Source of the DNA: a virus
Taxonomy: Duplodnaviria; Heunggongvirae; Uroviricota; Caudoviricetes
Strand: one strand, 5' to 3'
IMG/VR virus record: IMGVR_UViG_2585427755_000009
Length of the DNA stretch: 27,338 nt
In this document: positions 10,584-27,338 of the stretch, piece by piece
Numbering within the stretch: position 1 is the stretch's first letter
How the letters are laid out: each line of letters starts with the position of its first letter
The notes under the pieces: generated by a model
What the model saw: only the letters and a program-made list of their open reading frames with translations
Database searches by the model: none
What the model was told of the DNA's origin: nothing
Position numbers and translations under genes: made by a program

Positions 10584-10602
10584 GGCGTGGCGGGGATACG
10601 AT
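10584..10602. other. Putative cos (cohesive-end) core of a P2/186-type phage
   Basis: GGCGTGGCGGGGATACGAT matches about 14/19 (P2) and 16/19 (186) of the cos sequences as I recall them. It lies in a 360-bp GC-richer non-coding island between two AT-rich cargo genes, where P2-family cos is expected (between the A side and Q). The comparison is from memory. Confidence 0.3.
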
Positions 10603-10659
10603 TGCGCGCGCAAGCTAAAGTGGCAATAATGAGCATGTAAGGTAAAATTCAAGGAGATT

Positions 10660-11814: not shown

Positions 11815-11821
11815 GTGATAA

Positions 11822-11857
11822 TAGCCCCATTGAGAATTTTCATTTCTCTTGGGGCTA
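11822..11857. terminator. Stem-loop, likely bidirectional terminator between the convergent RES-domain gene and portal gene
   Basis: TAGCCCCA / TGGGGCTA outer stem with inner GAGAA / TTCTC stem and 7-nt loop, in the 52-bp gap between convergent stop codons. Confidence 0.45.
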
Positions 11858-11866
11858 ACTTAAATA

Positions 11867-12898
11867 TTAATCAAAGCAATATGAATTGAATGTAATTAAA
11901 TCTTCACCTAGCCAATCATTGACCTCCTCCATCCTTTTTTGTAAAGGTAGCAACTCGTTTCGAACAAACACATTAGCAGCCTTCTCCACATCCCCAAATC
12001 CCCCGACATTATTTGGCATTATCCCCATCATCTGTGGCGGCACGCGGTGTGCTGCCATCATGTCATCGCGACTAACATTTTTGATATTCAGAAATTCATC
12101 CTTCGCCGCGACTTCTGACAACGGGATAATCTGAAGTCCGTCCTTTTTGCCGTTCGGCGAGTACATAAACAGGTTGCGGAAGTTGCCCGGACCTTTGGCG
12201 CTTTTCATCGCATTACGGAGGTTGTTCACATCTTCCTGGTTCTGCGCGGCATCGGTCATGTACATGATGAAGCCTGCATGACTACCGTTAATGTAATACT
12301 TCCGGCGGAACAGCGTGGCGGACTCGTTGAGCAGGGCTGACGGAATGGCAGAAAGATAACCGGGCAGGCCGTAGATCTCCTGGTTGATATCCGGTTCCAT
12401 CAGGTGAAAAATGCTGCCTTTCGTGAACTGATACGGCTGTGTAGTCATGCCGTATTGCACAAACCAGTAGGTATCCAGGTCTAACCCGCGTCGGGTGTAT
12501 TTTGCCAGAGCAGGCTCAAGGGCGATAACTTCACCGAAGCGGTTCGTGCGTTTCTCCAGGTAGGCGTTACCAAATACCAGATAGTCCTGCACAAAACGTG
12601 AAAAAGCCTGCTGGCTGAGCAGCGGGTGAGGGATGTAGGTACTGGTCAGAATGTTGCATTTCACCGCAATTGGTGAGCTGTGATGCACGGCGGCGCGGAA
12701 GGTTCGTGCCAGTCCGTCAAAGCTGACGGGCGGCTCATACCAGCGATCCATCTGTACGCATTCCACATAGTCCAGCAGTTCACGGCGGTCCAGAACAGGA
12801 ACGGGATCGCCAAAGCTGAATGCTTCGGCTGAAGTTTGGCTTTTATGCTTGAGCTGATTCGTCGCCGCAGCGCGGTTTTTCTTACTCTTTCCCATCAA
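11867..12898 (-). CDS. Q: Portal protein (P2 gpQ family)
   Basis: 343 aa, transcribed leftward together with the terminase; size and position are those of P2 Q. Confidence 0.9.
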   Translation of the reverse strand: MMGKSKKNRAAATNQLKHKSQTSAEAFSFGDPVPVLDRRELLDYVECVQMDRWYEPPVSFDGLARTFRAAVHHSSPIAVKCNILTSTYIPHPLLSQQAFSRFVQDYLVFGNAYLEKRTNRFGEVIALEPALAKYTRRGLDLDTYWFVQYGMTTQPYQFTKGSIFHLMEPDINQEIYGLPGYLSAIPSALLNESATLFRRKYYINGSHAGFIMYMTDAAQNQEDVNNLRNAMKSAKGPGNFRNLFMYSPNGKKDGLQIIPLSEVAAKDEFLNIKNVSRDDMMAAHRVPPQMMGIMPNNVGGFGDVEKAANVFVRNELLPLQKRMEEVNDWLGEDLITFNSYCFD

Positions 12899-14661
12899 AA
12901 AATCTCCACAATATTGCTGGTATTGGCGGACTCGCCCTGCAGCGGTTCGTTAAACAGTGCGTGCATTGTTGCCCAGGCCAGATCGGCGTGGCTGGCTTCT
13001 TCGCTGCGGCTGGCTTCATAGGTTGGGCGGTTGCCACTGGCGGTGGTGGCGCGACGGATTGCCATGAATGACTGCGCAATGTCGGTGTGCCCGGCGTCAA
13101 ACTCCAGACGGCGGTGGCTGATAATGTCGTAGGCCTTGAGTACCAGGGCGTTTTTAACGTTGGGGTTGTAGACGAACTCCCGGACGGCAGGAAAGAACGC
13201 TTTCACGTTCTCGTAAACCCCGTGACCGACGCCGGTTGAGTCGATACCTATGTATGTCACGTTGTACTGTTCAGTCAGTTTTTTGATGGCGTCAGCCTGG
13301 GCGCGAAAGTCCATCCCGCGCCACTGGTGACGCTCAAGAATGCGGAACTTACCGCCCGGCACGGCTGGCGGAGCCACCACCACGCACCCGGCGCTGTCGC
13401 CGTTCTGCGTACCTTTTGCCGGGTCATAACCGATCCACACCTCGCGCCAGCCAAACGGGCGCAGCGCCAGTGCATGAAAGTCAGTCCAGACTTCCCAGCT
13501 GTCCACCATGCACGCCTGCAGCTCGCTGAGCGGGAACACGGATGCGAGATCGTCCACAAACTCACACATCAGCAGGTTCTGGTATTCGTCCGGGCTGTAC
13601 TCCATGCGCAGCTGGTCGAGGTCGAACAGGTTACAGCCGCCGCGCACCGCATCTTCCACGGTGACTATCTGGCGGTACTGCCCGTCTGCGCACAGCAGGC
13701 CGGGGGCCAGATTGTTGTGGGACAGGTCGATGTCCACCTTATCGGCTTTGTTGCGCCCACGATTGAACAGCGCACCGGACCAGAACGGATAAGCACTGTG
13801 AGTCAGGCTGGATGGCGTGGAAAAATAGGTCTGTCGCCATTTCTTGTGAATCGCCATACCGGAAGCCACTTTGCGCAGCTCCTGGAATTTCGGGATCCAG
13901 AAATATTCATCCAGATACAGGTTGCCGTGGTAACTCTGGGCCGTGCGGGCATTGGTACCGAGGAAATACAGTGTGGCCCCGTTGGGAAGCACCATCGGAT
14001 CGCCTTTCAGCTCCACTTCCACTTCTTTGGCGAAGTCGATGATGTACTGCTTAAAAACGTGGGCCTGTGCCTTGCTGGCGGAAAGGAAAATCTGGTTACG
14101 TCCGGTCAGCAGGGCGTCAATCAGGGCTTCACGGGCAAAATAGAAGGTCGCGCCGATCTGGCGTGACTTCAGCAGGTTTCGGATGCGGTTGGTTTTTCCG
14201 GCTTCCCACCAGTGGCGCTGGTAGTTGAACATGGAGGAATGGAAGATTTCTTCCAGCTTCTCAATTTGTTCATCGGTGAAAACGTTCTTTTCCGGCTGAC
14301 GGCGCGGGCCTTTGTTGCGGTTGGCGACGTTAGGGTTTAAGTCGGCTTCGTTGCCGCCATTGTTAAACTTGCCGATCCGCGCGTGGCGCTCAGACTGGCG
14401 CGCCAGTAGGTCAATTTCTTTAAAGTCTTTCCCTTCTTTGTGCTCCTTCATAATGAGCTGGCAGTAGCGTGCGGCGGTGGTGAGCTGCATCTGATCCAGC
14501 GGCCCATAGTCACCCCACTTATCGCGTTTTTTCCAGCTGTGAACGGTTGCAACTTTCTCGCCCAGCATTTCAGCAATGCGGGCTACGCGGTATCCCTGAA
14601 AGTACAGCAGCATGGCCTGCCGACGGGGATCGAGATCTGCGGGTGTCAGTGTGGTGTTCAT
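12895..14661 (-). CDS. P: Terminase large (ATPase) subunit (P2 gpP family)
   Basis: 588-aa protein overlapping the portal gene start by 4 nt; P2 P-like size and position. Confidence 0.9.
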   Translation of the reverse strand: MNTTLTPADLDPRRQAMLLYFQGYRVARIAEMLGEKVATVHSWKKRDKWGDYGPLDQMQLTTAARYCQLIMKEHKEGKDFKEIDLLARQSERHARIGKFNNGGNEADLNPNVANRNKGPRRQPEKNVFTDEQIEKLEEIFHSSMFNYQRHWWEAGKTNRIRNLLKSRQIGATFYFAREALIDALLTGRNQIFLSASKAQAHVFKQYIIDFAKEVEVELKGDPMVLPNGATLYFLGTNARTAQSYHGNLYLDEYFWIPKFQELRKVASGMAIHKKWRQTYFSTPSSLTHSAYPFWSGALFNRGRNKADKVDIDLSHNNLAPGLLCADGQYRQIVTVEDAVRGGCNLFDLDQLRMEYSPDEYQNLLMCEFVDDLASVFPLSELQACMVDSWEVWTDFHALALRPFGWREVWIGYDPAKGTQNGDSAGCVVVAPPAVPGGKFRILERHQWRGMDFRAQADAIKKLTEQYNVTYIGIDSTGVGHGVYENVKAFFPAVREFVYNPNVKNALVLKAYDIISHRRLEFDAGHTDIAQSFMAIRRATTASGNRPTYEASRSEEASHADLAWATMHALFNEPLQGESANTSNIVEIF

Positions 14662-14707
14662 GGCACAAACCTACAGCCTTGAATGAAGGCTTTCCCCGCC
14701 TGCGGTT

Positions 14708-14725
14708 TGTGTGGTTGTCGGTACA
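14708..14725. promoter_or_regulatory. Candidate late-promoter activator site (TGT-N12-ACA, Ogr/B type) in the P/O divergent intergenic region
   Basis: TGTGTGGTTGTCGGTACA with partial dyad symmetry about 80 bp upstream of the O start codon. The motif is short and expected several times by chance in a window this size. Confidence 0.35.
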
Positions 14726-14803
14726 AATACCGCGCATTGTTTCACTACCCCCATCACCGCAACCATAAGGCTCCAGTAAGTTATTTCTAACGGAGCACGG
14801 CTC

Positions 14804-15637
14804 ATGACAGTGAAAGCAAAGCGTTTTCGCATCGGGGTGGAAGGTGCCACCACCGACGGACGCGAAATCCAGCGTGAATGGCTGGAACAGATGGCAGCCA
14901 GCTACAACCCGGCGGTGTATACCGCGCTGATTAACCTTGAGCACATCAAGTCTTATCTCCCGGACAGCACCTTTAACCGCTACGGCAAGGTGACGGCGCT
15001 GTTTGCTGAAGAAATCACGGAAGGCCCGCTGGCAGGCAAGATGGCGCTGTATGCCGACGTTGAGCCAACGGAGTCCCTGGTGGAACTGGTGAAAAAAGGC
15101 CAGAAATTGTTCACCTCTATGGAAGTCAGCCCGAAGTTCGCTGATACGGGCAAAGCCTACCTGGTCGGCCTGGCTGCCACTGATGATCCTGCCAGTCTGG
15201 GTACGGAAATGCTGACATTCAGCGCCAGCGCAGCCCATAACCCGCTGGCAAACCGCAAGCAGAATCCCGCCAATCTCTTTACCGCCGCAGAGGAAACGGT
15301 GATCGAACTGGAAGAAATCCAGGATGACAAACCGTCCCTGTTTGCCCGTGTCACGGCGCTGTTTACTAAAAAAGAGCAGTCCGATGACGCCCGGTTCTCT
15401 GATGTGCATAAGGCCGTGGAGTTGGTCGCCACTGAGCAGCAGAACCTGAGCGCACGCACCGAAAAATCCCTGTCTGAGCAGGAAGAACGCCTGTCTGAAC
15501 TGGAGACTGCTCTGCAGGAGCAGCAAACCGCCTTTAACGAACTGGTGAATAAGCTGAGTCATGAAGACAGCCGCCAGGACTACCGCCAGCGTGCAACAGG
15601 CGGTAACGCCCCCGCTGACACTCTGACCAATTGCTGA
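14804..15637 (+). CDS. O: Capsid scaffolding protein (P2 gpO family)
   Basis: 277-aa acidic protein with a coiled-coil-like C-terminus, immediately upstream of the major capsid gene. Confidence 0.85.
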   Translation: MTVKAKRFRIGVEGATTDGREIQREWLEQMAASYNPAVYTALINLEHIKSYLPDSTFNRYGKVTALFAEEITEGPLAGKMALYADVEPTESLVELVKKGQKLFTSMEVSPKFADTGKAYLVGLAATDDPASLGTEMLTFSASAAHNPLANRKQNPANLFTAAEETVIELEEIQDDKPSLFARVTALFTKKEQSDDARFSDVHKAVELVATEQQNLSARTEKSLSEQEERLSELETALQEQQTAFNELVNKLSHEDSRQDYRQRATGGNAPADTLTNC

Positions 15638-15653
15638 TGGAGCACAAAACCTG

Positions 15654-16712
15654 ATGAAGAAGAATACCCGCTTTGCTTTTAACGCTTACCTGCAGCAGCT
15701 GGCGCGTCTGAACGGTGTGGCAGTTGAAGAACTGTCCAGCAAGTTCACTGTAGAGCCGTCTGTGCAGCAGACGCTGGAAGACCAGATCCAGCAATCCGCC
15801 GCATTCCTGACGCTGATTAATGTCACGCCAGTGACTGAGCAGTCCGGTCAGTTGCTGGGGCTGGGTGTTGGCAGCACCATTGCCGGAACCACTGATACCA
15901 CCGCAAAAGAGCGTGAGCCTGTCGATCCGACGCTGATGGTCGATGTGGAATATAAATGCGAGCAGACCAACTTTGACACGGTGCTGACCTACGCGAAGCT
16001 GGACCTGTGGGCGAAGTTTCAGGATTTCCAGGTGCGTATCCGTGACGCCATCGTGAAACGTCAGGCACTGGACCGCATCATGATCGGCTTTAACGGCGTG
16101 AAGCGTGCGAAAACCTCCAACCGTAGCGAAAACCCGCTGCTGCAGGATGTGAACAAAGGCTGGCTGCAGAAAATCCGTGAGGATGCACCGGATCACGTCA
16201 TGGGCAGCACCACCACGGGCGGTGAAACCACACCGGGCGCAGTGAAAGTCGGCAAAGGTGGCGAATATGCCAACCTGGACGCTGTAGTGATGGATGCGGT
16301 CAATGAGCTTATCGACGTGGTCTACCAGGACGATGACGATCTGGTGGTGATTTGCGGTCGTGAACTGCTGTCTGACAAGTATTTCCCGCTGGTCAACAAA
16401 GAGCAGGAAAACAGTGAAAAACTGGCTGCCGATATGATCATCAGCCAGAAACGCATGGGTGGCCTGCAGGCCGTGCGTGCGCCGTTCTTCCCGCCGAATG
16501 CGCTGCTGATCACCCGTCTGGATAACCTGTCCATCTACTGGCAGGAAGATACCCGCCGCCGTTCAGTTATCGACAACCCGAAACGTGACCGGATTGAAAA
16601 CTTTGAATCCGTTAACGAAGCCTATGTGGTTGAGGACTACCGCTGCGCCGCACTGGTGGAAAACATCCAGATTGGCGACTTCAGTGCCGCCGCAGCAGAA
16701 GCCGGAGCGTAA
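15654..16712 (+). CDS. N: Major capsid protein (P2 gpN family)
   Basis: 352 aa; P2 O-N-M order and size. Confidence 0.9.
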   Translation: MKKNTRFAFNAYLQQLARLNGVAVEELSSKFTVEPSVQQTLEDQIQQSAAFLTLINVTPVTEQSGQLLGLGVGSTIAGTTDTTAKEREPVDPTLMVDVEYKCEQTNFDTVLTYAKLDLWAKFQDFQVRIRDAIVKRQALDRIMIGFNGVKRAKTSNRSENPLLQDVNKGWLQKIREDAPDHVMGSTTTGGETTPGAVKVGKGGEYANLDAVVMDAVNELIDVVYQDDDDLVVICGRELLSDKYFPLVNKEQENSEKLAADMIISQKRMGGLQAVRAPFFPPNALLITRLDNLSIYWQEDTRRRSVIDNPKRDRIENFESVNEAYVVEDYRCAALVENIQIGDFSAAAAEAGA

Positions 16713-16715
16713 ACC

Positions 16716-17366
16716 ATGAGCCTGAGTCCCGCACGGCAGCATCGCCTGCGCGTTCAGGCTGAACAGGCCGCCCGTGAGGGCGGCAGCGTTCGCCACGCGT
16801 CGGGCTATGACCTGATGCTGCTGCAACTGGCGGAAGACCGCCGCCGTCTCAAGGGCGTTCAGTCCACGGTGAAAAAAGCGGAAATAAAGGTGGAGCTGCT
16901 GCCGAAATATGCCGACTGGGCAGAGGGCGTCCTGGCTGCCGGAGGCGCTCAACAGGATGACGTGCTGATGTACGTGATGCTGTGGCGCATTGATGCCGGA
17001 GATTATGCCGGGGCGCTGGAGATCGGGCGTCATGCCCTGCGTCATGGCTGGGTGATGCCGCTGGGTAACCGCAACGTGCAGACCGTGCTGGCAGAGGAAA
17101 TGGCAGACGCGGCGCAGAGCGCAACGCTTGCCGCCACCGGCTTTGATGCCGATCTGTTGCTGCAGACGCTGGAGCTGACAGACGGTCTGGATATGCCGGA
17201 CCAGTCACGGGCGCGTCTGCATAAAGCGATTGGCGCTGTCCTGAGTGAAAGCAACCCGGCTTCCGCCCTTAATCATCTCAACCATGCGTTACAGCTCGAT
17301 CCCCGCTGTGGCGTGAAAAAAGACAAACAGCAGCTGGAGCGCAGACTGCGCAATGACAGCCGCTGA
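16716..17366 (+). CDS. M: Terminase small (endonuclease) subunit (P2 gpM family)
   Basis: 216 aa directly after N, as for P2 M. Confidence 0.85.
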   Translation: MSLSPARQHRLRVQAEQAAREGGSVRHASGYDLMLLQLAEDRRRLKGVQSTVKKAEIKVELLPKYADWAEGVLAAGGAQQDDVLMYVMLWRIDAGDYAGALEIGRHALRHGWVMPLGNRNVQTVLAEEMADAAQSATLAATGFDADLLLQTLELTDGLDMPDQSRARLHKAIGAVLSESNPASALNHLNHALQLDPRCGVKKDKQQLERRLRNDSR

Positions 17367-17461
17367 CAGAACGTGCCCCCGCGCACGGGCGACACGGGGT
17401 GGCGAAAGGCACAGCCACATCAAAACCCCGTCCACCGCCCTCTATTTCAGGAGAAAGCAGC

Positions 17462-17926
17462 ATGAAGTTTGTTGCGCCAGAACAGGCACCGGAACAGGCG
17501 GAAATCATCAGAAACACGCCGTTCTGGCCTGATGTGGACCTGTCGGAGTTTCGCAGTGTCATGCGCACTGACGGCACGGTGACGCAGCCGCGTTTAAAGC
17601 AGGTTGCGCTGTCGGCAATTTCGGAGGTCAACGCAGAGCTGTATGAGTTTCGCAGACGCCAGCAGATGCTGGGGTATGTGTCGCTGGCTGAGGTTCCGGC
17701 GGAACAGCTGGACGGCAAAAGTGAGCGCATTCAGCACTATTTCAACGCGGTTTACTGCTGGGCACGCGCCATGCTCAACGAACGATACCAGGACTATGAC
17801 GCCACGGCATCCGGTGTGAAGCGAGGCGAGGAACTGGCGGAATCCAGCGGTGATTTGTGGCGTGACGCCCGCTGGGCCATCAGCCGGGTGCAGGATGCGC
17901 CGCACTGCACAGTGGAGCTTATCTGA
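17462..17926 (+). CDS. L: Head completion/stabilisation protein (P2 gpL family)
   Basis: ATG 17462 preceded by AGGAGAAA; 154 aa; its stop overlaps the X start. Confidence 0.8.
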   Translation: MKFVAPEQAPEQAEIIRNTPFWPDVDLSEFRSVMRTDGTVTQPRLKQVALSAISEVNAELYEFRRRQQMLGYVSLAEVPAEQLDGKSERIQHYFNAVYCWARAMLNERYQDYDATASGVKRGEELAESSGDLWRDARWAISRVQDAPHCTVELI

Positions 17927-18129
17927 TGAAAGTGCGTGCGCATCAGTATGACACGGTGGACGCGCTTTGCTGGCGTCATTACGGGCGCACGCAGGGTGTC
18001 ACGGAGCAGGTACTGAAGGCAAATCCGGGGCTTGCCGAATATGGCCCCTTTTTACCTCACGGGCTGCAGGTGGAGCTGCCGGACATTCCGACCACCACCA
18101 CCGTGCAGACCGTCCAGCTATGGGACTGA
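17926..18129 (+). CDS. X: Tail protein X (P2 gpX family)
   Basis: 67 aa, position and size of P2 X. Confidence 0.8.
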   Translation: MKVRAHQYDTVDALCWRHYGRTQGVTEQVLKANPGLAEYGPFLPHGLQVELPDIPTTTTVQTVQLWD

Positions 18130-18132
18130 ATT

Positions 18133-18348
18133 ATGACGCTTGAGCGAATCAGCGCCTTTATCACGTACTGCATCGCAGTTGTGCTGGCCTGGCTGGGCGA
18201 TTTGTCCATCAAGGATGCCTCAACGCTGGGCGGCCTGATGATTGGTGTGCTGATGCTGGCTATCAACTGGTACTACAAACACAAAGCCTACCAGCTTCTG
18301 CGCGACGGGCAGATCTCGCGGGAGGACTATGAATCCATCAATCGTTAA
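18133..18348 (+). CDS. Holin (small, two predicted TM segments)
   Basis: 71 aa with two hydrophobic helices and a charged C-terminus (KHKAYQLLRDGQISREDYESINR), immediately upstream of and overlapping the endolysin gene. Confidence 0.7.
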   Translation: MTLERISAFITYCIAVVLAWLGDLSIKDASTLGGLMIGVLMLAINWYYKHKAYQLLRDGQISREDYESINR

Positions 18349-18844
18349 ACGCTGCCTTGTCGGGGCCGTGCTGGCTATTGCTGCCACGCTGCCGGGTTTT
18401 CAGCAGCTTCACACCTCCGTGGAAGGGCTGAAACTGATTGCCGATTACGAAGGTTGTCGTCTGCAGCCGTATCAGTGCAGCGCGGGTGTCTGGACCGACG
18501 GCATTGGTAATACGTCGGGCGTCATTCCCGGCAAAACCATTACGGAGCGACAGGCAGCAGAAGGGCTGATCTCCAACGTGCTGCGTGTGGAGCGGGCGCT
18601 GGAAAGGTGTGTGAAGCAACAGCCGCCGCAGAAGGTGTATGACGCTGCGGTGTCGTTTGCCTTCAACGTGGGTACGGGCAATGCCTGCAGTTCCACGCTG
18701 GTGAAATTACTCAATCAGCGGCGCTGGGCGGATGCATGCCGACAGTTGCCGCGCTGGGTTTATGTGAAAGGTGTTTTTAATCAGGGGCTGGATAACCGCC
18801 GTGCGCGGGAGATGGCCTGGTGCCTTAAAGGAGCTGGACTATGA
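18329..18844 (+). CDS. Endolysin, lysozyme-like with N-terminal SAR (signal-anchor-release) segment
   Basis: Gly/Ala-rich weakly hydrophobic N-terminus (CLVGAVLAIAATLPG) followed by an E...D...T catalytic arrangement (ADYEG...WTDGIGNT) typical of phage T4-type SAR lysozymes. Confidence 0.8.
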   Translation: MNPSIVKRCLVGAVLAIAATLPGFQQLHTSVEGLKLIADYEGCRLQPYQCSAGVWTDGIGNTSGVIPGKTITERQAAEGLISNVLRVERALERCVKQQPPQKVYDAAVSFAFNVGTGNACSSTLVKLLNQRRWADACRQLPRWVYVKGVFNQGLDNRRAREMAWCLKGAGL

Positions 18845-19269
18845 CACGTGCGCTGGCGGTAGTGGCGGCGCTGGCACTCGTTGCGCTGGGCTGGCAGTCG
18901 TGGCGGCTTAACAGCGCCAGCCACACCATCGAAATGCAGCGCGCGGCGCTGAAAAGTAAAGCGCACGAACTAACGAAGAAAAATAGCCAGCTGATCAGTC
19001 TGTCCATTCTGGCTGAAACCAACAATCGGGAGCAGGCGCGGCTCTACGCCGAAGCAGAACAGACCAGTGCACTGCTGAGACAACGACAACGCCGGATTGA
19101 GGAACTGAAACGTGAGAACGAGGATTTACGCCGCTGGGCTGATACTCCTTTGCCTGCTGACATTATCCGGCTGCGGAAACGTCCGGCATTCACCGGAGGT
19201 GCAGCTTACCGTCAGTGGTTGTCCGCGAGTGACGCCGTGTCGGCTGGATCAGGCAACGCCGCGCACTAA
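18841..19269 (+). CDS. Spanin inner-membrane subunit (Rz / LysB-like)
   Basis: N-terminal TM segment (LAVVAALALVALGW) followed by a charged coiled-coil region. Confidence 0.7.
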   Translation: MTRALAVVAALALVALGWQSWRLNSASHTIEMQRAALKSKAHELTKKNSQLISLSILAETNNREQARLYAEAEQTSALLRQRQRRIEELKRENEDLRRWADTPLPADIIRLRKRPAFTGGAAYRQWLSASDAVSAGSGNAAH

Positions 19270-19402
19270 CGGTGATCTGAACGCATTGCTGGATGAAACG
19301 GAAGCCGCCTGGGCGGTCTGTGCAGACAAAGTGGACATGATTATTGCGTGTCAGGAGCGAAACAGTGAACAAACCACAATCCCTGCGCCACGCCCTCAAT
19401 AA
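19112..19402 (+). CDS. Spanin outer-membrane lipoprotein subunit (Rz1 / LysC-like), overlapping the Rz gene in the +1 frame
   Basis: Signal peptide with lipobox LTLSGC, Pro-rich mature part; starts inside Rz in another frame and extends beyond it, as in P2 lysB/lysC. GTG start at 19112. Confidence 0.5.
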   Translation: MRTRIYAAGLILLCLLTLSGCGNVRHSPEVQLTVSGCPRVTPCRLDQATPRTNGDLNALLDETEAAWAVCADKVDMIIACQERNSEQTTIPAPRPQ

Positions 19403-19796
19403 AGCGGTGCCTTATGTCCGCAATAACCCGGACAAACTGCATCTGTTTGTGGATAACGGTTCGCTGGTTGCTACGGGGGCCAGCTCCATGTCATGGGAGT
19501 ACCGTTACACCCTGAACGTGGTGATTGAGGATTTCAGCGGCGACCAGAATCTGCTGATGGCTCCGGTTTTGCTGTGGCTGCGGGATAACCAGCCCGATGC
19601 CATCAATAACCCGGCGTTACGGGAAAAGCTATTCACCTTTGAGGTGGATATTCTGCGCAACGATGTCTGTGATATCAGCCTTAACCTGCAACTGACGGAG
19701 CGTGTGCTGGTCAGCACTGACGGCAGTGTGTCGAGTGTTGAAGCTGTAGCGGAACCCGATGAACCTGAAGAAATGTGGACGGTGAAACGTGGCTGA
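19365..19796 (+). CDS. R: Tail completion protein (P2 gpR family)
   Basis: GTG 19365 preceded by AGGAG (7-nt spacer); about 143 aa; the track start at 19344 is TTG. Confidence 0.8.
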   Translation: MNKPQSLRHALNKAVPYVRNNPDKLHLFVDNGSLVATGASSMSWEYRYTLNVVIEDFSGDQNLLMAPVLLWLRDNQPDAINNPALREKLFTFEVDILRNDVCDISLNLQLTERVLVSTDGSVSSVEAVAEPDEPEEMWTVKRG

Positions 19797-20238
19797 ATTG
19801 CAGAAGGTGGACGACTGGCTGAGTGCCTTGCTGGCGAATCTGGAGCCAGCCGCAAGAAGCCGCATGATGCGCCAACTGGCGCAGGAACTTCGCCGGACAC
19901 AGCAGCAGAATATCAGGATGCAGCGCAACCCTGACGGCAGCAGCTATGAACCGCGACGGGTAACAGCACGCAGTAAAAAAGGCCGTATCAAACGTCAGAT
20001 GTTTGCAAAGCTGCGCACCACAAAATACCTGAAAACTGCCGCCAGCACCGACTCTGCCAGCGTGCAGTTTGAAGGCAAGGTGCAGCGCATTGCCCGCGTT
20101 CATCACTACGGCCTGCGCGATCGTGTCAGTCGTAAGGGACCGGAGGTCCGTTACGCAGAGCGTCGCCTGCTGGGTGTAAATGATGATGTTGAAGCAAATA
20201 TCCGTGATATTTTGCTACGTTGGCTAAGCCAATATTAA
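19789..20238 (+). CDS. S: Tail completion / virion morphogenesis protein (P2 gpS family)
   Basis: 149 aa, GTG start overlapping the R stop; P2 R-S synteny. Confidence 0.8.
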   Translation: MAELQKVDDWLSALLANLEPAARSRMMRQLAQELRRTQQQNIRMQRNPDGSSYEPRRVTARSKKGRIKRQMFAKLRTTKYLKTAASTDSASVQFEGKVQRIARVHHYGLRDRVSRKGPEVRYAERRLLGVNDDVEANIRDILLRWLSQY

Positions 20239-20239
20239 T

Positions 20240-20935
20240 TCATGTCAAATATTGATAACTTTTATCAATTTCAAGTTTGTGAAATTTGGTTATCTTTGAA
20301 TCAATGTATAAATCTATGAACATTGCTATCCCTATCATAAATATAAATAGAATGCTTAAATAAATAATGGGGGTGGCAATCATAATTGTAAATTTGTTCT
20401 TGTCTGTAGTTTTTGCTAACTCTTCTTTCTTTTCAGGAATTAGCAAGTAGCTACAAATGAAATCTTTTGTGGCTTGTTGGATTGAAGTGATCTTATCAAG
20501 CTGTGACTTGTCAACACATACATCTGGTGTGATATTCCATTCAGATGTGTATGGTATGTTTTGTGCGTGTTCTGGTTTCATCCAAAAGGAATCTTTTGTT
20601 TCTCTATGTGTGATTTCAACCCAATTTACGGGTTCTTTGGCGATGAAATAGGTAAATTTATAAAAACAAAGTGCTGAGGTCATAATGACTGCAATTCCAA
20701 ATGAGACGATAAATATTTTATGTTTTTTAATATGGGGTTTTGTGCTTAACTTATATTTGCAAAGACTAAGTCTAATAATTGGCTTTGATATTCCAATCTT
20801 TGATATCAAAAAGTCTTCTTCTGGATAGGATGTGTTTAACCATGACCAAAAAGCTGAGATGCCACCTATAAGCCATTTAAATATAAGACCACCAATGGCC
20901 GTAGCTAAAAATGTATTTATTTTATCGATTTCCAT
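20240..20935 (-). CDS. Integral membrane protein of unknown function (AT-rich moron between S and V, opposite strand)
   Basis: 231 aa with 3-4 predicted TM helices. Strongly AT-rich, antisense to the late operon; its stop codon is one base from the gpS stop. Confidence 0.6.
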   Translation of the reverse strand: MEIDKINTFLATAIGGLIFKWLIGGISAFWSWLNTSYPEEDFLISKIGISKPIIRLSLCKYKLSTKPHIKKHKIFIVSFGIAVIMTSALCFYKFTYFIAKEPVNWVEITHRETKDSFWMKPEHAQNIPYTSEWNITPDVCVDKSQLDKITSIQQATKDFICSYLLIPEKKEELAKTTDKNKFTIMIATPIIYLSILFIFMIGIAMFIDLYIDSKITKFHKLEIDKSYQYLT

Positions 20936-20971
20936 ATAGATCCCCTTTTGGTTGAGCTATCTGGGATTATA

Positions 20972-20989
20972 TGTATGAGAGACAGAACA
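20972..20989. promoter_or_regulatory. Candidate late-promoter activator site (TGT-N12-ACA) upstream of baseplate gene V
   Basis: TGTATGAGAGACAGAACA, 47-64 bp upstream of the V start codon, where the P2 V late promoter would be expected. Confidence 0.35.
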
Positions 20990-21035
20990 ATGAAGCGAGG
21001 TTCGTTAAAATAGGAATCACGGGCATTCTTTCTTC

Positions 21036-21614
21036 ATGAATGCACAATTAACCGAAATTATGCGCCTTATCACCAACCTGATCCGCACTGGTGTAGTCAC
21101 CGAAGTGGACCGGGAAAACTGGCTTTGCCGGGTGAAAACGGGCGACCTTGAAACCAACTGGATTAACTGGCTGACGCTGCGCGCGGGTAATGCCCGCACA
21201 TGGTGGAAACCATCGGAAGGTGAGCAGGTGGTGCTGCTGAGTCTGGGCGGCAATCTGGAAACCGCCTTTGCGTTACCCGCCATCTATTCGAATCAGTTCG
21301 CGCCACCGTCGACGTCGGCGGACGCCTGCGTGACAGAACATCCTGACGGTGGCTGGTTTGAATACGAACCCGCCACTGGGCGCTGGTATGTCAGGGGCAT
21401 CAAATCAATGGTCATTGAGGCCGCTGACAACATCACCATGAAAACCAGTGAGTTTGTACTGGAGACTGACCGCACGCGCATTAACAGTGAAGTGGTGATC
21501 AATGGTGGCGTTACCCAGGGCGGCGGAGCGATGAGTTCTAACGGGATCGTGGTTGATGCGCATCAGCATACTGGCGTCCTGAAAGGCGGCGATACAACCG
21601 GAGGCCCGGTATGA
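21036..21614 (+). CDS. V: Baseplate assembly / spike protein (P2 gpV family)
   Basis: 192 aa with a Gly-rich C-terminus; first gene of the V-W-J-I-H-G block. Confidence 0.85.
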   Translation: MNAQLTEIMRLITNLIRTGVVTEVDRENWLCRVKTGDLETNWINWLTLRAGNARTWWKPSEGEQVVLLSLGGNLETAFALPAIYSNQFAPPSTSADACVTEHPDGGWFEYEPATGRWYVRGIKSMVIEAADNITMKTSEFVLETDRTRINSEVVINGGVTQGGGAMSSNGIVVDAHQHTGVLKGGDTTGGPV

Positions 21615-21970
21615 CGCTTTATATCGGGATGAACAATACCAGCGGTAAAGCCATTACTGATATTGACCATCTGCGTCAGTCGGTGCGGGACATTCTACTG
21701 ACACCGCAGGGTAGCCGCATTGCCCGTCGTGAATATGGTTCCCTGCTGTCGACACTGATAGACCAGCCACAAAATCCGGTATTACGCCTGCAGGTCATGT
21801 CGGCAGTGTATGTGGCGCTGAGTCGCTGGGAGCCACGGCTGACGCTGGATTCCATCACCATCAACAGCAATTTTGACGGTTCAATGGTGGTGGAGCTGAC
21901 CGGGCGGCGTAATAACGGTGTGCCTGTTTCCCTTTCCGTATCAACAGGAGCAGAGAATGGCAGTGATTGA
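21611..21970 (+). CDS. W: Baseplate protein W (GPW/gp25 family)
   Basis: 119 aa, overlaps the V stop. Confidence 0.85.
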   Translation: MTLYIGMNNTSGKAITDIDHLRQSVRDILLTPQGSRIARREYGSLLSTLIDQPQNPVLRLQVMSAVYVALSRWEPRLTLDSITINSNFDGSMVVELTGRRNNGVPVSLSVSTGAENGSD

Positions 21971-22865
21971 CCTTTCGCAGTTGCCTGCGCCGCAGATTGT
22001 GGATGTGCCGGACTTTGAGACGCTGCTTGCCGAACGCAAGGCAGAATTTGTGGCGCTTCATCCGAAAGATGAGCAGGAAGCAGTGATCCGCACGCTGGAA
22101 CTGGAATCTGAACCCGTCACCAAATTGCTGCAGGAGAACGCTTACCGTGAGTTGCTTCTGCGCCAGCGCATTAACGAAGCCGCGCAGGCTGTGATGGTGG
22201 CTTACGCGATGGGCAGCGATCTTGACCAGCTCGCTGCCAACTACAACGTGAAACGCCTGACGGTGACGCCTGCTGATAATGACGCTGTGCCGCCCGTTGC
22301 AGCTGTGATGGAAAGCGATGAAGCGTTACGCCTGCGTGTGCCTGCAGCCTTTGAAGGGCTTTCAGTTGCGGGGCCAACTGCAGCTTATGAATTTCATGCC
22401 CGAAGCGCCGACGGTCGGGTGGCGGATGCCAGTGCAACCAGCCCGGCACCTGCAGAGGTGGTGCTGACTGTCCTTAGCCGCGAAGGCGATGGAACTGCAG
22501 AAAAAGACCTGCTGGACGTGGTGGAAAAAGCTCTGAACAGTGAGAACGTCCGCCCAGTGGCTGACCGTCTTACGGTTCGCAGCGCAGAAATCATCCCGTA
22601 TCGCGTGGAAGCCACCATTTTTCTCTATCCTGGACCGGAAGCAGAGCCGGTAATGGCAGCGGCAAAAGCCAGCCTGCAGAAGTACATCGCCAGTCAGACG
22701 CGTCTTGGTCGGGATATTCGCCGTAGCGCCATCTTTGCCGCCCTGCATGTTGAGGGTGTGCAGCGTGTGGAGCTGGCTTCTCCTCTGGCGGATGTGGTCC
22801 TGAACAAAACACAGGCGGCATCATGTACGCAGTGGAGCGTAACCAACGGAGGAACGGATGAATAG
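21957..22865 (+). CDS. J: Baseplate protein J (P2 gpJ family)
   Basis: ATG 21957 (MAVIDLSQL...), 302 aa. Confidence 0.85.
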   Translation: MAVIDLSQLPAPQIVDVPDFETLLAERKAEFVALHPKDEQEAVIRTLELESEPVTKLLQENAYRELLLRQRINEAAQAVMVAYAMGSDLDQLAANYNVKRLTVTPADNDAVPPVAAVMESDEALRLRVPAAFEGLSVAGPTAAYEFHARSADGRVADASATSPAPAEVVLTVLSREGDGTAEKDLLDVVEKALNSENVRPVADRLTVRSAEIIPYRVEATIFLYPGPEAEPVMAAAKASLQKYIASQTRLGRDIRRSAIFAALHVEGVQRVELASPLADVVLNKTQAASCTQWSVTNGGTDE

Positions 22866-23463
22866 TCTGCTGCCACCGGGTTCAACACCACTGGAGCGCC
22901 GACTGGCGCAAACCTGCAGCGGGATTTCTGATCTGCAGGTGCCGCTTCGTGACTTGTGGAATCCGGCAACCTGTCCGGTCAGTTTCCTGCCTTATCTCGC
23001 CTGGGCGTTCTCTGTGGATCGCTGGGACGAGGGCTGGACAGAAAGCGTCAAGCGCCAGGTGGTGAAGGATGCTTTTTATATTCATCAGCATAAAGGGACC
23101 ACCAGTGCCGTGCGGCGGGTGGTGGAGCCGTTCGGCTTTCTGATCCGCATTATTGAGTGGTGGCAGACCGGAGAGGCACCGGGCACGTTTCGCCTGGATA
23201 TCGGCGTGCAGGACCATGGCATCACTGAAGATACCTATCTGGAACTTGAGCGACTGATAAGCGATGCCAAACCATGTAGCCGCCACATGATCGGCATGTC
23301 CATCAATCTGCAGACCAGCGGCCCGCATTGGGTGAGAGCCGCCAGCTATCTTGGCGAAGAAATCACGATCTATCCGTATATCAACGAAACAATTATTTCT
23401 GGCGGCACCGCGCATGAAGGCGGAGCGGTCCATGTTATTGACACAATGAGAGTGAATCCATGA
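22858..23463 (+). CDS. I: Baseplate/tail protein I (P2 gpI family)
   Basis: 201 aa between J and the tail-fibre gene. Confidence 0.85.
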
Positions 23464-24860
23464 GCACAAAATTTTATACCCTGCTGACGGATATTGGCGC
23501 GGCGAAACTTGCCAGCGCCGCCGCGCTCGGTGTGCCTTTAAAAATTACCCATATGGCGGTCGGCGATGGCGGCGGAACATTGCCAACGCCGGACGCAAAG
23601 CAGACAGCACTGGTAAATGAGAAACGCCGGGCTGCGCTGAATATGCTCTATATCGACCCGCAGAACAGCAGCCAGATTATTGCTGAACAGGTGATCCCTG
23701 AAAATGAGGGCGGTTGGTGGATACGTGAAGTGGGCCTGTTTGATGAATCCGGGGCATTGATTGCCGTGGGCAACTGCCCGGAAAGCTATAAGCCGCAACT
23801 GGCTGAAGGCAGCGGGCGCACCCAGACCGTGCGCATGGTGCTGATTACCAGCAGTACGGACAATATCACCCTGAAAATCGACCCTGCTGTAGTACTGGCA
23901 ACCCGCAAGTATGTGGATGATAAGACACTGGAGCTGAAGGTGTATGTGGATGACCAAATGGCAAAACACCTTGCCGCAGCGGACCCACATTCACAGTATG
24001 CACCCAAAGAAAGTCCAACGTTTACCGGAACCCCCAAAGCGCCAACGCCAGCGGCGGGGAATAATACCACGCAGGTTGCGACCACTGCATTTGTTCAGGC
24101 GGCACTGACGGCTCTTATTAATGGTGCGCCAGCCACGCTGGACACGCTGAAAGAAATAGCCGTAGCCATTAACAATGATCCGAAATTCAGTACCACCATT
24201 AACAATGCGTTGGCACTGAAAGCGCCGCTGTCGAGTCCGGCACTTACCGGAACGCCAACAGCTCCCACGGCGGCGCAGTCGGTCAACAATACACAGATTG
24301 CCACTACCGCTTTTGTGAAATCGGCAATTGCAGCAATGGTGGGTTCTGCACCTGCGGCACTGGATACGCTGAACGAACTGGCAGCGGCGCTGGGGAATGA
24401 TCCGAACTTTGCCACGACAATGCTTAATGCGCTGTCAGGTAAACAACCGCTGGACAATACGCTTACCAATTTGAGTGGAAAGGATGTAGCTGGTCTTCTC
24501 ACATACCTTGGTTTGGGAGAAGCGGCTAAAAGGAATGTAGGGACAGGGGCGAATCAGATACCTGATATGGGTAGCTTCACGCTTTCTGTTTCAGGTACTG
24601 GATATCAAAAATTACCATCAGGTTTTATTCTTCAGTGGGGCTCAATCGGCGCACCAGGCATTGCACAGGATGTAGTAACCCATTTCCCGATTGCATTTCC
24701 AAACAGATGTCTGCGTGTTTTGGTCTCACAAGACTACACACCAGATAGCGGGGCTGTTGGTTATATTGCCTGTGCAGGTTTTAGTCCCGACCCGGTTAAA
24801 TTTATATCCAGAGCCAGTACTCCTGGCCTCGGCGCTTCATTTTTAGCGTTAGGCTGTTAA
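23460..24860 (+). CDS. H: Tail fibre protein (P2 gpH-like), current C-terminal variant
   Basis: 466 aa; conserved N-terminal region followed by a distinct C-terminal domain after the hix-like site at 24496-24521. Confidence 0.85.
23514..24522. repeat. Left arm of a perfect inverted repeat of at least 1,009 bp (tail-fibre constant region)
   Basis: Reverse complement of 26330-27338; proteins in all reading frames across the two arms are identical in the ORF track. The repeat reaches the window edge, so the outer limit is unknown. Confidence 0.85.
24496..24521. promoter_or_regulatory. Hin/Gin/Cin-type inversion crossover site (hix/gix-like), left copy
   Basis: TTCTCACATACCTTGGTTTGGGAGAA; its reverse complement TTCTCCCAAACCAAGGTATGTGAGAA matches hixL as I recall it (TTCTTGAAAACCAAGGTTTTTGATAA) at the core AAACCAAGGT and the TTCT/GAA ends. 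It sits exactly where tail-fibre identity ends. Confidence 0.5.
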
Positions 24861-24881
24861 TTTAGCTATATGGAGTGAAAA

Positions 24882-25322
24882 ATGAATTACATATATTCCG
24901 CGACTACAAACTCTTTCTATCCGCTGGAGATGAAAGAGGATTACACTCAAGCTGACTCATGGCCAGATGATGCTGTTGAAGTTGATGAGCAAGTGTATAT
25001 TGAGTTTTCCGGATTACCGCCGAAAGGAAAAATCCGTATCGCTGGAGAAAATGGTTTTCCTGCATGGTCTGAAATTCCACCACCAACACATGAGGAACAA
25101 ATTGCTGCAGCCGAATTGGAGAAGCAGCAATTGATTAATCAGGCCAACGATTATATGAACAGTAAACAATGGCCTGGTAAAGCGGCTATTGGTCGTCTGA
25201 AAGGTGAGGAACTGGCGCAATATAATTTGTGGCTGGATTATCTGGACGCACTGGAACTGGTTGATACCTCCAGTGCTCCAGATATTGAATGGCCTACGCC
25301 TCCGGCAGTTCAGGCCAGATGA
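24882..25322 (+). CDS. G: Tail fibre assembly chaperone (P2 gpG / Mu U family)
   Basis: 146 aa immediately after H; conserved C-terminal DxxxxWP motif region (APDIEWPTPP). Confidence 0.8.
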   Translation: MNYIYSATTNSFYPLEMKEDYTQADSWPDDAVEVDEQVYIEFSGLPPKGKIRIAGENGFPAWSEIPPPTHEEQIAAAELEKQQLINQANDYMNSKQWPGKAAIGRLKGEELAQYNLWLDYLDALELVDTSSAPDIEWPTPPAVQAR

Positions 25323-25887
25323 CATCCGGCGCGGTGCTGGTATCTGTTGCCGTCACCGCGTCAATGTAATCCAGCACAGCGTTAAGTCTGGTTGTTTCTG
25401 CCTGCGTCAGTTTACGTTCGGCCTGTAATTTCAGCTGAATCAGACTAATGGAAGCCATTGCTGCATCAATCAGTGACTGGCGCTGTGCTTCTGCCGCTTC
25501 TACTGCGGCACCGTGTTGTGCCTCAGTATCTGTCACCCATTTCTTACCATCCCATTTATCATATGGCGTTAACGGTGAAAGCGTGACATAACCGTTTTTG
25601 ATGGCACCGATATAATCCACTGTAACAGCAGCACCATTTTCGATTGAGTAAACAGTCTCATTGCGATGGTCTTCTTCATGGCTCCATCCCTTACCTGTAA
25701 ATACTGCCACTCTTCCCGGAATGTTTTCGCCAGGGTCAATTCCAGTGGAACAGGCGGGCATACTTACGCCAGTATTAATATATTCATCAGACCAGCCCGT
25801 ATACTCAGATGTTTCAGCATCATAATAAAAACAACGCATATCGCCCGGCACTGTAGCCAGCCCATTTTTATCAAAAACAGGTTTCAT
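25294..25887 (-). CDS. Alternative tail fibre assembly chaperone (G'), convergent with G
   Basis: 197 aa on the minus strand after H'; C-terminus APDVIWPELP parallels the G C-terminus; the 3' ends of G and G' overlap by 29 bp. Confidence 0.75.
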   Translation of the reverse strand: MKPVFDKNGLATVPGDMRCFYYDAETSEYTGWSDEYINTGVSMPACSTGIDPGENIPGRVAVFTGKGWSHEEDHRNETVYSIENGAAVTVDYIGAIKNGYVTLSPLTPYDKWDGKKWVTDTEAQHGAAVEAAEAQRQSLIDAAMASISLIQLKLQAERKLTQAETTRLNAVLDYIDAVTATDTSTAPDVIWPELPEA

Positions 25888-27338
25888 TATTTAGCCCTCA
25901 CCAGAAAGTTAAATGCGATGTTACGTGGTCTGACGGCTATAAAATTCACACCATCACCCACTGAATTACTGGTGTAATGGTATCGAGAGAAACCCGGCTC
26001 GTGTGCTGATATTCCATCGTGATTAGCAATCGAATGGCCGGACCCCTCTGGATAATTACCTCCAAATTGCGATAAAGATGTTGCTGCCTGCCAGCTTAAT
26101 AATGCTCGTCCACTGTCCGCCCCTCGCCCGTCATCCCAGATACGAATGAAATCACCGCGGGCTTCAGGTAATACCAGCGAAGGAAACACTTTCGCCAGCA
26201 CAGGGTAATCAGTGGCAGAGAATTTCGCGCCGTTGAACTTCAAAAACACCATGCCGGACCAGCTTTCGATTACGGTATCTGGCATTGCAGCGGACGGCCA
26301 GAAGAACGGAACACCAATAGCTGGAGCACCTTCTCCCAAACCAAGGTATGTGAGAAGACCAGCTACATCCTTTCCACTCAAATTGGTAAGCGTATTGTCC
26401 AGCGGTTGTTTACCTGACAGCGCATTAAGCATTGTCGTGGCAAAGTTCGGATCATTCCCCAGCGCCGCTGCCAGTTCGTTCAGCGTATCCAGTGCCGCAG
26501 GTGCAGAACCCACCATTGCTGCAATTGCCGATTTCACAAAAGCGGTAGTGGCAATCTGTGTATTGTTGACCGACTGCGCCGCCGTGGGAGCTGTTGGCGT
26601 TCCGGTAAGTGCCGGACTCGACAGCGGCGCTTTCAGTGCCAACGCATTGTTAATGGTGGTACTGAATTTCGGATCATTGTTAATGGCTACGGCTATTTCT
26701 TTCAGCGTGTCCAGCGTGGCTGGCGCACCATTAATAAGAGCCGTCAGTGCCGCCTGAACAAATGCAGTGGTCGCAACCTGCGTGGTATTATTCCCCGCCG
26801 CTGGCGTTGGCGCTTTGGGGGTTCCGGTAAACGTTGGACTTTCTTTGGGTGCATACTGTGAATGTGGGTCCGCTGCGGCAAGGTGTTTTGCCATTTGGTC
26901 ATCCACATACACCTTCAGCTCCAGTGTCTTATCATCCACATACTTGCGGGTTGCCAGTACTACAGCAGGGTCGATTTTCAGGGTGATATTGTCCGTACTG
27001 CTGGTAATCAGCACCATGCGCACGGTCTGGGTGCGCCCGCTGCCTTCAGCCAGTTGCGGCTTATAGCTTTCCGGGCAGTTGCCCACGGCAATCAATGCCC
27101 CGGATTCATCAAACAGGCCCACTTCACGTATCCACCAACCGCCCTCATTTTCAGGGATCACCTGTTCAGCAATAATCTGGCTGCTGTTCTGCGGGTCGAT
27201 ATAGAGCATATTCAGCGCAGCCCGGCGTTTCTCATTTACCAGTGCTGTCTGCTTTGCGTCCGGCGTTGGCAATGTTCCGCCGCCATCGCCGACCGCCATA
27301 TGGGTAATTTTTAAAGGCACACCGAGCGCGGCGGCGCT
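25887..27338 (-). CDS. Alternative tail fibre protein H' (partial; 5' end runs off the window)
   Basis: N-terminal about 320 aa identical to H, different C-terminal receptor-binding region (GAPAIGVPFFWPSAAMPD...). The reading frame stays open to the window edge. Confidence 0.75.
   Translation of the reverse strand, partial: SAAALGVPLKITHMAVGDGGGTLPTPDAKQTALVNEKRRAALNMLYIDPQNSSQIIAEQVIPENEGGWWIREVGLFDESGALIAVGNCPESYKPQLAEGSGRTQTVRMVLITSSTDNITLKIDPAVVLATRKYVDDKTLELKVYVDDQMAKHLAAADPHSQYAPKESPTFTGTPKAPTPAAGNNTTQVATTAFVQAALTALINGAPATLDTLKEIAVAINNDPKFSTTINNALALKAPLSSPALTGTPTAPTAAQSVNNTQIATTAFVKSAIAAMVGSAPAALDTLNELAAALGNDPNFATTMLNALSGKQPLDNTLTNLSGKDVAGLLTYLGLGEGAPAIGVPFFWPSAAMPDTVIESWSGMVFLKFNGAKFSATDYPVLAKVFPSLVLPEARGDFIRIWDDGRGADSGRALLSWQAATSLSQFGGNYPEGSGHSIANHDGISAHEPGFSRYHYTSNSVGDGVNFIAVRPRNIAFNFLVRAK
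26330..27338. repeat. Right arm of the perfect inverted repeat of at least 1,009 bp (truncated by the window end)
   Basis: Reverse complement of 23514-24522. Confidence 0.85.
26331..26356. promoter_or_regulatory. Hin/Gin/Cin-type inversion crossover site (hix/gix-like), right copy
   Basis: TTCTCCCAAACCAAGGTATGTGAGAA, inverted copy of the site at 24496-24521, at the inner edge of the right repeat arm. Confidence 0.5.

Follow-up and report, generated by a model that had tools for sequence, protein, structure and literature searches.

The tail fiber region of a P2-like prophage

The stretch of DNA analyzed here, 27,338 nt from IMG/VR record IMGVR_UViG_2585427755_000009 and referred to below as the window, comprises the leftmost 27 kb of an Escherichia coli P2-like prophage, running from int to the tail fiber genes. 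We looked for int, a CI-type repressor, gpA, portal and terminase genes, capsid and lysis genes, and the gene series V-W-J-I-H-G, and found the gene order and hallmark proteins of P2 (Peduoviridae) in the prophage to which the window belongs. Pfam searches of the window itself recovered Phage_CI_repr and Phage_GPA as well as Tail_P2_I and Phage_tail_fib. Two relatives, L003 and L004, carry genes identical to those of the window for Terminase, GPO, cap_P2, GPL, tail_X, holin, lysozyme, GpR, tail_S, base_V, GPW, and Baseplate_J, while the genes from the sheath to ogr, which are present in L003, are absent from the window.

The tail fiber gene H (23460-24860, + strand) encodes a Phage_tail_fib N-terminal domain and a Gp53-like_C domain, as identified with Pfam. 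Its constant N-terminal part, Hc (23460-24495, + strand), is P2 gpH-like and lies outside the invertible segment; the Phage_tail_fib N-terminal domain covers Hc residues 1-150 (E = 2.5e-65), and conservation of Hc is ~95% in every one of 80 related IMG/VR loci. The variable C-terminal tip of H, Hv (24522-24860, + strand; Gp53-like_C, E = 1.2e-13), is the one expressed in the orientation shown, which we call A, and is followed by G (24882-25322, + strand; Caudo_TAP, E = 1.9e-38), a tail fiber assembly chaperone cognate to Hv. The opposite strand holds G′ (25294-25887, - strand; Caudo_TAP, E = 4.9e-27), an alternative tail fiber assembly chaperone, and H′, which extends from 25887 to the window edge (- strand) and has a Phage_tail_fib N-terminal domain of its own. 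Within H′, the alternative and normally silent tip H′v (25887-26330, - strand) is in frame with Hc across the crossover site and is joined to Hc only after inversion. We found no sequence similarity between Hv and H′v, and the likeness between G and G′, which overlap tail-to-tail by 29 nt, is limited to the C-terminal 72 residues (38% identity). The convergence of H-G with G′-H′, proposed in the initial annotation, was borne out by the open reading frames and Pfam matches: the constant fiber part lies outside the segment, and the alternative C-terminal parts with their cognate chaperones face each other inside it.

Crossover sites and the two orientations of the segment

A 26 bp hix/gix-like crossover site with the sequence TTCTCACATACC TT GGTTTGGGAGAA is located at 24496-24521 (+ strand; core TT at 24508-24509), and the 26 bp at 26331-26356 (- strand) are its exact reverse complement. 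The authentic portion of the right site is restricted to its inner half-site and core (26331-26344, - strand; core AA at 26343-26344); the true right site, as found in relatives L001 and L003, reads TTCTCCCAAACC AA CGTTTAAGAAAA. The invertible segment between the core dinucleotides (24510-26342, no strand) spans 1,833 bp, or 1,837 bp with the cores included.

To evaluate the hix-like match that had been noted previously, we scanned with the invertase crossover consensus published in Table 3 of Forde et al. (PMC4134206), there quoting Sandmeier 1994, using an IUPAC form, TTYYCNTAAACSTYSGTTTWNRRGAA, that was rendered in this analysis. The only matches in the window were 24496-24521 (+) and 26331-26356 (-), with three mismatches each, compared to zero matches expected by chance (100 shuffles). 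The same scan of L003, an intact relative, picked up the left site as well as the true right site, which has one mismatch, and a site of the consensus type occurs at nt 1037-1062 of H in 74 of the 80 related IMG/VR loci. We conclude that both sites, 26 bp long, inverted with respect to each other and with matching 2 bp cores (TT/AA), are genuine crossover sites of the Hin/Gin family type.

The segment was found in both orientations while its flanks stay fixed. Strain NRZ14408 is represented by two complete assemblies that differ in this respect: CP158426 carries Hc-site-Hv and LT599825 carries Hc-site-H′v, the segment being inverted relative to shared flanks and the junctions exchanged at the core. 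Seventy-four complete E. coli genomes span a junction of the A type and 72 span one of the opposite, B type. Opposite orientations were also present in prophages whose identity to the window is at least 99.97%, L003 being in orientation A and L095, a draft contig, in orientation B. In the orientation B assemblies L095 and L002, H′v forms part of a complete 501-aa fiber gene behind V-W-J-I. The window itself combines the two states: its left junction (Hc-Hv) is that of orientation A, and its right junction (H′v followed by the reverse complement of Hc) is that of orientation B.

We detected no invertase encoded in any of the six frames of the window by tblastn with the Gin-like invertase of a neighbor (best E = 0.9), in agreement with the initial annotation. 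L003, L094, and L001, on the other hand, have an adjacent invertase gene, which begins 56 nt beyond the right site and encodes a 188-aa protein with the N terminus MLIGYVRVSTNDQ. This protein has the Pfam architecture Resolvase+HTH_7 and matches the Mu Gin structure 3UJ3 over 184 residues (E = 1.4e-92). Invertases of this family are small serine proteins with a Resolvase domain, a C-terminal helix-turn-helix, and a catalytic Ser near residue 9-10, and they act together with a Fis-bound recombinational enhancer in cis, usually located within the 5′ part of the invertase gene. The window thus holds a tail fiber inversion module of the Gin/Pin/Cin/Hin type, ~1.84 kb in length and of a kind already known, as had been suggested from the sites and is now supported by the layout and by the occurrence of both orientations in nature.

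A perfect inverted repeat that begins at the crossover core

Positions 23514-24522 and 26330-27338 form a perfect inverted repeat (1,009 of 1,009 positions), which is cut by the window edge; our automated repeat search gave 1,014 nt, having run across two mismatches at the inner end. The coordinates assigned to this repeat in the initial annotation all hold, as does the placement of the two 26 bp sites at its inner ends. The repeat is located outside the cores, and identity inside the sites is lost within 1 nt. We considered whether a long repeat of the P1 C-segment type, which is situated inside the sites and belongs to the segment, could be a true part of the system, and rejected this because the repeat in the window is outside the crossover sites.

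The right-hand arm (26345-27338, - strand), which we regard as spurious, is the reverse complement of 23514-24507, that is, of Hc and the outer half of the left site. It is 100% identical to the left arm and begins exactly after the 2 bp crossover core, at the position where L003 and L001 carry the Gin-like invertase. A very recent real duplication would also give an arm that is 100% identical.

Comparison with related prophages placed the point of divergence at the same base. L003 (Logan SRR18346045) has three mismatches to the window over 12,885 nt (99.98% identity) and matches it up to 26344, the core AA, after which L003 continues into the invertase, sheath, tube, tape measure, U, D, and ogr genes. 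Identity between the window and L003, L005, and L094, which are intact relatives, extends to 26344 and stops there, and the match to L001 (~97% identical) ends at this base as well. The NCBI draft contig JOSJ01000051.1 (77,516 bp; assembly GCA_000713655.1) ends in a sequence 100% identical to window positions 13460-27338 and terminates 1 nt past the window, so that the mirror repeat reaches the contig end.

The mirror arrangement, defined as at least 80% of 22800-27338 present colinearly, was absent from all 5,426 complete E. coli genomes searched, of which 2,977 gave a match, and from all 50,697 phage records. Database coverage of 22800-27338 stops at 26347 or begins at 24505. The matching E. 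coli genomes have a median of two matching places each.

Draft assemblies at this locus

Draft contigs related to the window frequently break at the crossover sites. In the set of 80 related IMG/VR loci, the contig terminates 0-8 nt beyond the left site in 14 cases and no more than 120 nt from it in another six, and in two cases it terminates at most 25 nt beyond the right site. The L005 contig ends at 26344, the draft contig behind L094 begins exactly at 24508, and in two Logan assemblies (L097 and L098) the segment alone forms a stand-alone contig of ~1.85 kb. The same palindrome as in the window was seen in L016, with a 196-nt arm that reaches a contig end, and in the 48-kb record IMGVR_UViG_2541047905_000004, with arms of at least 9.5 kb whose sole mismatch falls in the inner half-site, inside the segment. 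The palindrome was seen in draft contigs only, three in all, two of which have an arm that meets a contig end.

The invertible tail fiber loci of P2-like prophages have been found in both orientations together in clonal E. coli cultures (PMC4272514). Forde et al. described 26 bp sites and contigs of alternative alleles that were assembled separately; they screened contig ends for hairpin artifacts and warned of artifactual duplications in phage regions (PMC4134206).

Origin of the mirror repeat

The initial annotation offered two explanations for the repeat, an assembly artifact from a population of mixed orientation and a long inverted duplication through which RecA could also flip the segment. 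We favor the former and put at about 90% the probability that the 1-kb mirror repeat is an assembly chimera from a culture holding the switch in both orientations, given the contig end, the near-identical prophages, and the lack of a finished genome with the mirror among those searched. A serine invertase, encoded just to the right of the segment, would exchange strands at the central 2 bp of the two inverted 26 bp sites, and the resulting flip of ~1.84 kb would fuse Hc to Hv (with chaperone G) in one orientation and to H′v (with chaperone G′) in the other. The sequenced culture very probably contained orientations A and B together, and we infer that both were represented in the reads of this particular assembly. 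The assembler would then have entered the segment via the orientation A junction (Hc-site-Hv) and left it via the orientation B junction (H′v-site-reverse complement of Hc) rather than via the orientation A junction (H′v-site-invertase). Such a wrong exit would make the last 994 bases of the contig a backward reading of 23514-24507 and would leave the invertase missing from the window, with the invertase, sheath, tube, tape measure, U, D, and ogr genes presumably placed on another contig.

That the arm ends after exactly 1,010 nt likely reflects a branch in the assembly graph contributed by a second P2-like prophage sharing Hc. The same graph would equally come from a real inversion between two prophages. 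We had considered the contig end (23513/27339) as a means of distinguishing an artifact from such an inversion and rejected it, since both predict a stop at the end of the shared stretch and the contig end alone cannot separate them.

A real inverted duplication is improbable in our judgment: the arm starts after the core and meets a draft contig end, the arrangement is absent from the complete E. coli genomes searched, and near-identical prophages have the invertase and the remaining tail genes at this position. A real mirror could have been made by the invertase itself if the chromosome contained a second P2-like prophage, lying elsewhere in direct orientation, whose left site recombined with the right site of the prophage described here; the intervening DNA would be inverted to give Hc(1)-segment-reverse complement of Hc(2), and the contig would stop where the two prophages cease to be identical. 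A break exactly at the 2 bp core is what a site-specific event would be expected to leave, two related prophages per genome are common (the median of two matching places), and the contig end after the shared 1,010 nt fits this scenario as well as it fits an artifact. We nevertheless consider inter-prophage inversion very unlikely, because its product appears in no complete E. coli genome in our search, the second prophage is hypothetical, and local flipping, frequent as judged from the 74 and 72 finished genomes and the two assemblies of one strain, alone accounts for both junctions. Hin/Gin-type invertases, moreover, need their sites and enhancer on one supercoiled domain, so that long-distance recombination is rare. 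Were it true, a tail fiber invertase would have driven a large chromosomal inversion with endpoints in two prophages.

The least credible reading is a local inverted duplication of the constant fiber region, giving two complete convergent fiber genes that share at least 1 kb and could flip by RecA, for although the H′ frame is open and in phase with Hc across the right site to the window edge and the arms are 100% identical, a duplication has no reason to stop precisely at the crossover core, prophages 99.9-100% identical carry the invertase and tail genes there, our searches of genomes and phage records did not return it, the arrangement was seen in draft contigs only, with the arm meeting a contig end in two of three, and the longer repeats of known systems are inside the crossover sites rather than outside (PMC4134206, Table 3).

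The probable assembly chimera has consequences for repeat surveys. Invertible segments cause draft assemblies to break, or to double back on themselves, exactly at crossover sites, and chimeric contigs of this sort enter public genome and virus collections. When scanning for repeats, a perfect inverted repeat that runs from a recombinase crossover core to a contig end should be presumed an artifact until long reads contradict this.

Comparison with known systems

Tail fiber switches are a textbook bet-hedging device that alters phage host range. The window shares with the Mu G segment and its invertase Gin the architecture Sc | Sv-U / U′-S′v | gin and exchange at a 2 bp core within inverted sites; it differs in being part of a P2-like prophage, in the length of the segment (1.84 kb, compared to ~3 kb for the Mu G segment), and in the fiber and chaperone sequences. 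The P1 C segment with Cin, and Min of p15B, represent the same invertase family and the same purpose of alternating fiber tips. P1 has 0.6-kb inverted repeats inside its cix sites.

The closest counterparts are the tail fiber allele switches of Phi1, Phi2, and Phi4 of E. coli EC958 (Forde et al. 2014, PMC4134206) and of the P2-like prophages of EPEC E2348/69 (Goldberg et al. 2014, PMC4272514). In these, as in the window, the constant 5′ fiber part lies outside and mirror-image 3′ alternatives with their chaperones lie inside, and the EC958 Phi2 sites, TCCTCAATTACCTT GGTTTAGGAGAA and GAGAGATAAACGTT GGTTTGGGGGAA, resemble the 26 bp sites of the window. They have an adjacent invertase gene, as do the near-identical prophages L003 and L094, and coexisting orientations that disturb assemblies. 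We see no essential difference from these switches, Hv and H′v of the window being particular alleles; the switch is already documented in E. coli P2-like prophages and provides little biological news.

The mirror repeat is the exception. EC958 Phi1 and Phi2 contain internal repeats of 227-508 bp (PMC4134206). In contrast to these and to P1, the 1-kb repeat of the window is outside the sites. We know of no system with a 1-kb repeat outside its crossover sites, and such a position is what a chimeric join of the two orientations would give. In this respect the window resembles palindromic or hairpin contig artifacts, in which the same DNA is reused in reverse complement after a branch point; the arm is just ~1 kb, compared to the 48-kb palindrome of IMGVR_UViG_2541047905_000004, because the contig ends.

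Architecture of the fibre switch

Two convergent gene pairs make up the switch at the right end of the window: the plus strand carries H (23460-24860) and G (24882-25322), the minus strand G' (25294-25887) and H' (from 25887 to the window edge). Pfam assigns H a tail-fibre N-terminal domain and a Gp53-like C-terminal domain, H' a tail-fibre N-terminal domain, and G and G' Caudo_TAP. Comparison of the alternative C-terminal tips, Hv and H'v, revealed no detectable similarity, and the likeness of G to G' is confined to the last 72 residues. A tblastn search across the window found no encoded invertase (best E 0.9). The gene calls, Pfam and tblastn results thus agree with the initial annotation, which described convergent fibre modules without a visible invertase.

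The long inverted repeat it reported was also borne out: 23514-24522 and 26330-27338 are exact reverse complements (1,009/1,009 bases), and the window edge truncates the repeat. The 1,014-nt length returned by the repeat search reflects extension across two mismatches just internal to it. At the inner ends lie the proposed 26-bp crossover sites, the left at 24496-24521 (TTCTCACATACC TT GGTTTGGGAGAA) and the right, its exact reverse complement, at 26331-26356. Table 3 of Forde et al. (PMC4134206) gives the crossover consensus of Mu, P1, e14, p15B and S. boydii, and we scanned the window with our own IUPAC rendering of it. Only these two sites matched, with 0 matches in 100 shuffles. Since the consensus picked out both sites and no other, the hix-like assignment withstood comparison with a proper recombinase-site model, which had been named as a way to refute it. 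The switch is a real tail-fibre inversion module of the Gin/Pin/Cin/Hin type in a P2-like prophage, a kind already known.

Prophage context and source contig

The window spans the left portion of a P2-like prophage, from the integrase gene (int, 1-1209, minus strand) through a CI-type repressor, gpA, two cargo genes, portal and terminase, capsid, lysis and baseplate V-W-J-I genes. Genes required by all P2-like phages are absent from it: tail sheath, tube, tape measure, U, D and ogr. The plus-strand cargo genes encode a 647-aa KAP-family P-loop NTPase (8354-10297; matching PDC-S49, a candidate defence family of PADLOC, at E 3e-156) and a 384-aa RES-domain protein (10660-11814); both sit with the replication gene A region on one side and the portal gene on the other, the position that old/tin occupy in P2. 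Between tail genes S and V, the minus strand, opposite to these genes, encodes a 231-aa DUF6216 protein (20240-20935). The S-V gap appears to be a slot for variable cargo (morons), because the related prophage L001 (from NZ_CP158426.1) has a different, 867-nt hypothetical gene there.

A search with the exact H protein led to NCBI draft contig JOSJ01000051.1 (GCA_000713655.1; 77,516 bp), whose end matches positions 13460-27338 at 100% identity. The contig extends one base beyond the window, so the inverted repeat runs into the contig end. Bases 1-3 are exactly the int stop codon, and the right edge (27338), in frame with H', leaves a single base of the contig uncovered; the window therefore appears to be a provirus call cut back to gene boundaries and not an arbitrary slice.

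Canonical right flank and switch activity

A near-identical prophage in the Logan assembly of SRR18346045 (L003) shows 3 mismatches to the window over 12,885 nt; the match runs to 26344, where the right site has its central AA. From 26345 a different outer half-site follows, giving a complete right site of TTCTCCCAAACC AA CGTTTAAGAAAA; the consensus scan matched this true right site and the left site. Beyond it lie a 188-aa Resolvase+HTH_7 protein (N-terminus MLIGYVRVSTNDQ; 184 residues matched to the solved Mu Gin invertase, E 1.4e-92), then sheath, tube, tape measure, U, D, ogr and host DNA. When 22800-27338 was compared with complete E. coli genomes, the best matches covered either 22800-26347 or 24505-27338, never both, and at least 80% of this interval was found in one place in 0 of 5,426 such genomes and 0 of 50,697 phage records.

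The switch is active. In two complete assemblies of strain NRZ14408 the flanks are identical but the segment is flipped: the constant N-terminal part of H (Hc) is followed by the tips as Hc-site-Hv ... H'v-site-invertase in CP158426 (orientation A) and as Hc-site-H'v ... Hv-site-invertase in LT599825 (orientation B). The exchange point is the central dinucleotide, and the outer half-sites remain with the flanks. L003 (orientation A) and L095 (orientation B) show both states in prophages that share 99.97-100% identity with the window, and complete genomes spanning the Hc-Hv and Hc-H'v junctions number 74 and 72, respectively. Both orientations of P2-like prophage fibre loci have been shown experimentally to occur together in clonal E. 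coli cultures (Goldberg et al., PMC4272514).

RefSeq/PGAP calls H'v an 'integrase' pseudogene (incomplete, missing N-terminus), both in its silent-cassette state (L001, 9088-9549) and when fused to Hc (L002, from NZ_LT599825.1, 7383-7850). This label is an annotation error that could mislead recombinase searches.

Three consensus crossover sites occur in some related IMG/VR prophages, at H nt 1037, 2719 and 4625 in L061 and at 1037, 1922 and 3305 in L051, where the invertase gene lies between them on the opposite strand. These layouts suggest multi-segment, shufflon-like fibre switches like the one that Goldberg et al. (PMC4272514) reported for a single EPEC P2-like prophage.

Other draft assemblies at the same locus

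Breakdown at this locus is frequent in draft assemblies. A consensus-type site lies at H nt 1037-1062 in 74 of 80 related IMG/VR loci; 14 contigs stop 0-8 nt past this site, 6 more within 120 nt of it and 2 at most 25 nt past the right site. One contig ends at 26344 (L005), another begins at 24508 (L094), and two consist of the invertible segment alone (L097 and L098). The window-type palindrome occurs in two further drafts. The mirror arm of L016 measures 196 nt and reaches the contig end, and the arms of IMGVR_UViG_2541047905_000004 (48,006 bp; L006/L086/L087) mirror each other over at least 9.5 kb apart from one mismatch, which falls within the segment, in the site's inner half. The latter palindrome is centred on the same invertible segment, its length about twice the int-to-H distance, and the record, counted as a 48-kb virus, very probably results from fold-back during assembly. 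In a separate draft (L092; GCA_018019135.1, DADWLV010000003.1), a partial segment (window 24559-26174) directly abuts the portal/RES/KAP-NTPase region (window 9018-12286) and is joined on its other side to U-D-ogr; this may be what a deletion left of a prophage, or else a further misassembly.

Origin of the 1-kb repeat

The left junction of the window is the orientation-A junction, and the right junction is the left junction of orientation B, reversed. The window therefore equals the left half of A plus the right half of reverse-complemented B, joined inside the shared segment, a molecule that a single intramolecular inversion cannot yield. In the assembly graph of a mixed culture, reads would link the segment end both to the invertase flank and to the reverse complement of Hc, and the graph would contain the path seen in the window. 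Of the two explanations in the initial annotation, an assembly artefact from mixed orientations or a real long inverted duplication, we favour the first, with a probability of about 90% that the 1-kb repeat is a chimera. Separately assembled alternative-allele contigs have been described, with a warning of artefactual duplications in phage regions (Forde et al., PMC4134206). That the arm stops after exactly 1,010 nt could plausibly reflect a graph branch from a second Hc copy in the source genome.

The two readings of the repeat as real structure are, even together, improbable. If the invertase had joined this prophage's right site to the left site of another P2-like prophage, the break would likewise fall at the core and the contig could end where the two prophages diverge, but this reading requires a hypothetical second prophage, and its product has no precedent among the finished genomes searched. 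A local inverted duplication of Hc, the annotation's second option, gives no reason for an end at the 2-bp core and is contradicted by the canonical layout of near-identical prophages; moreover, the longer repeats of known inversion systems lie inside the crossover sites (PMC4134206), whereas the 1-kb repeat of the window lies outside them.
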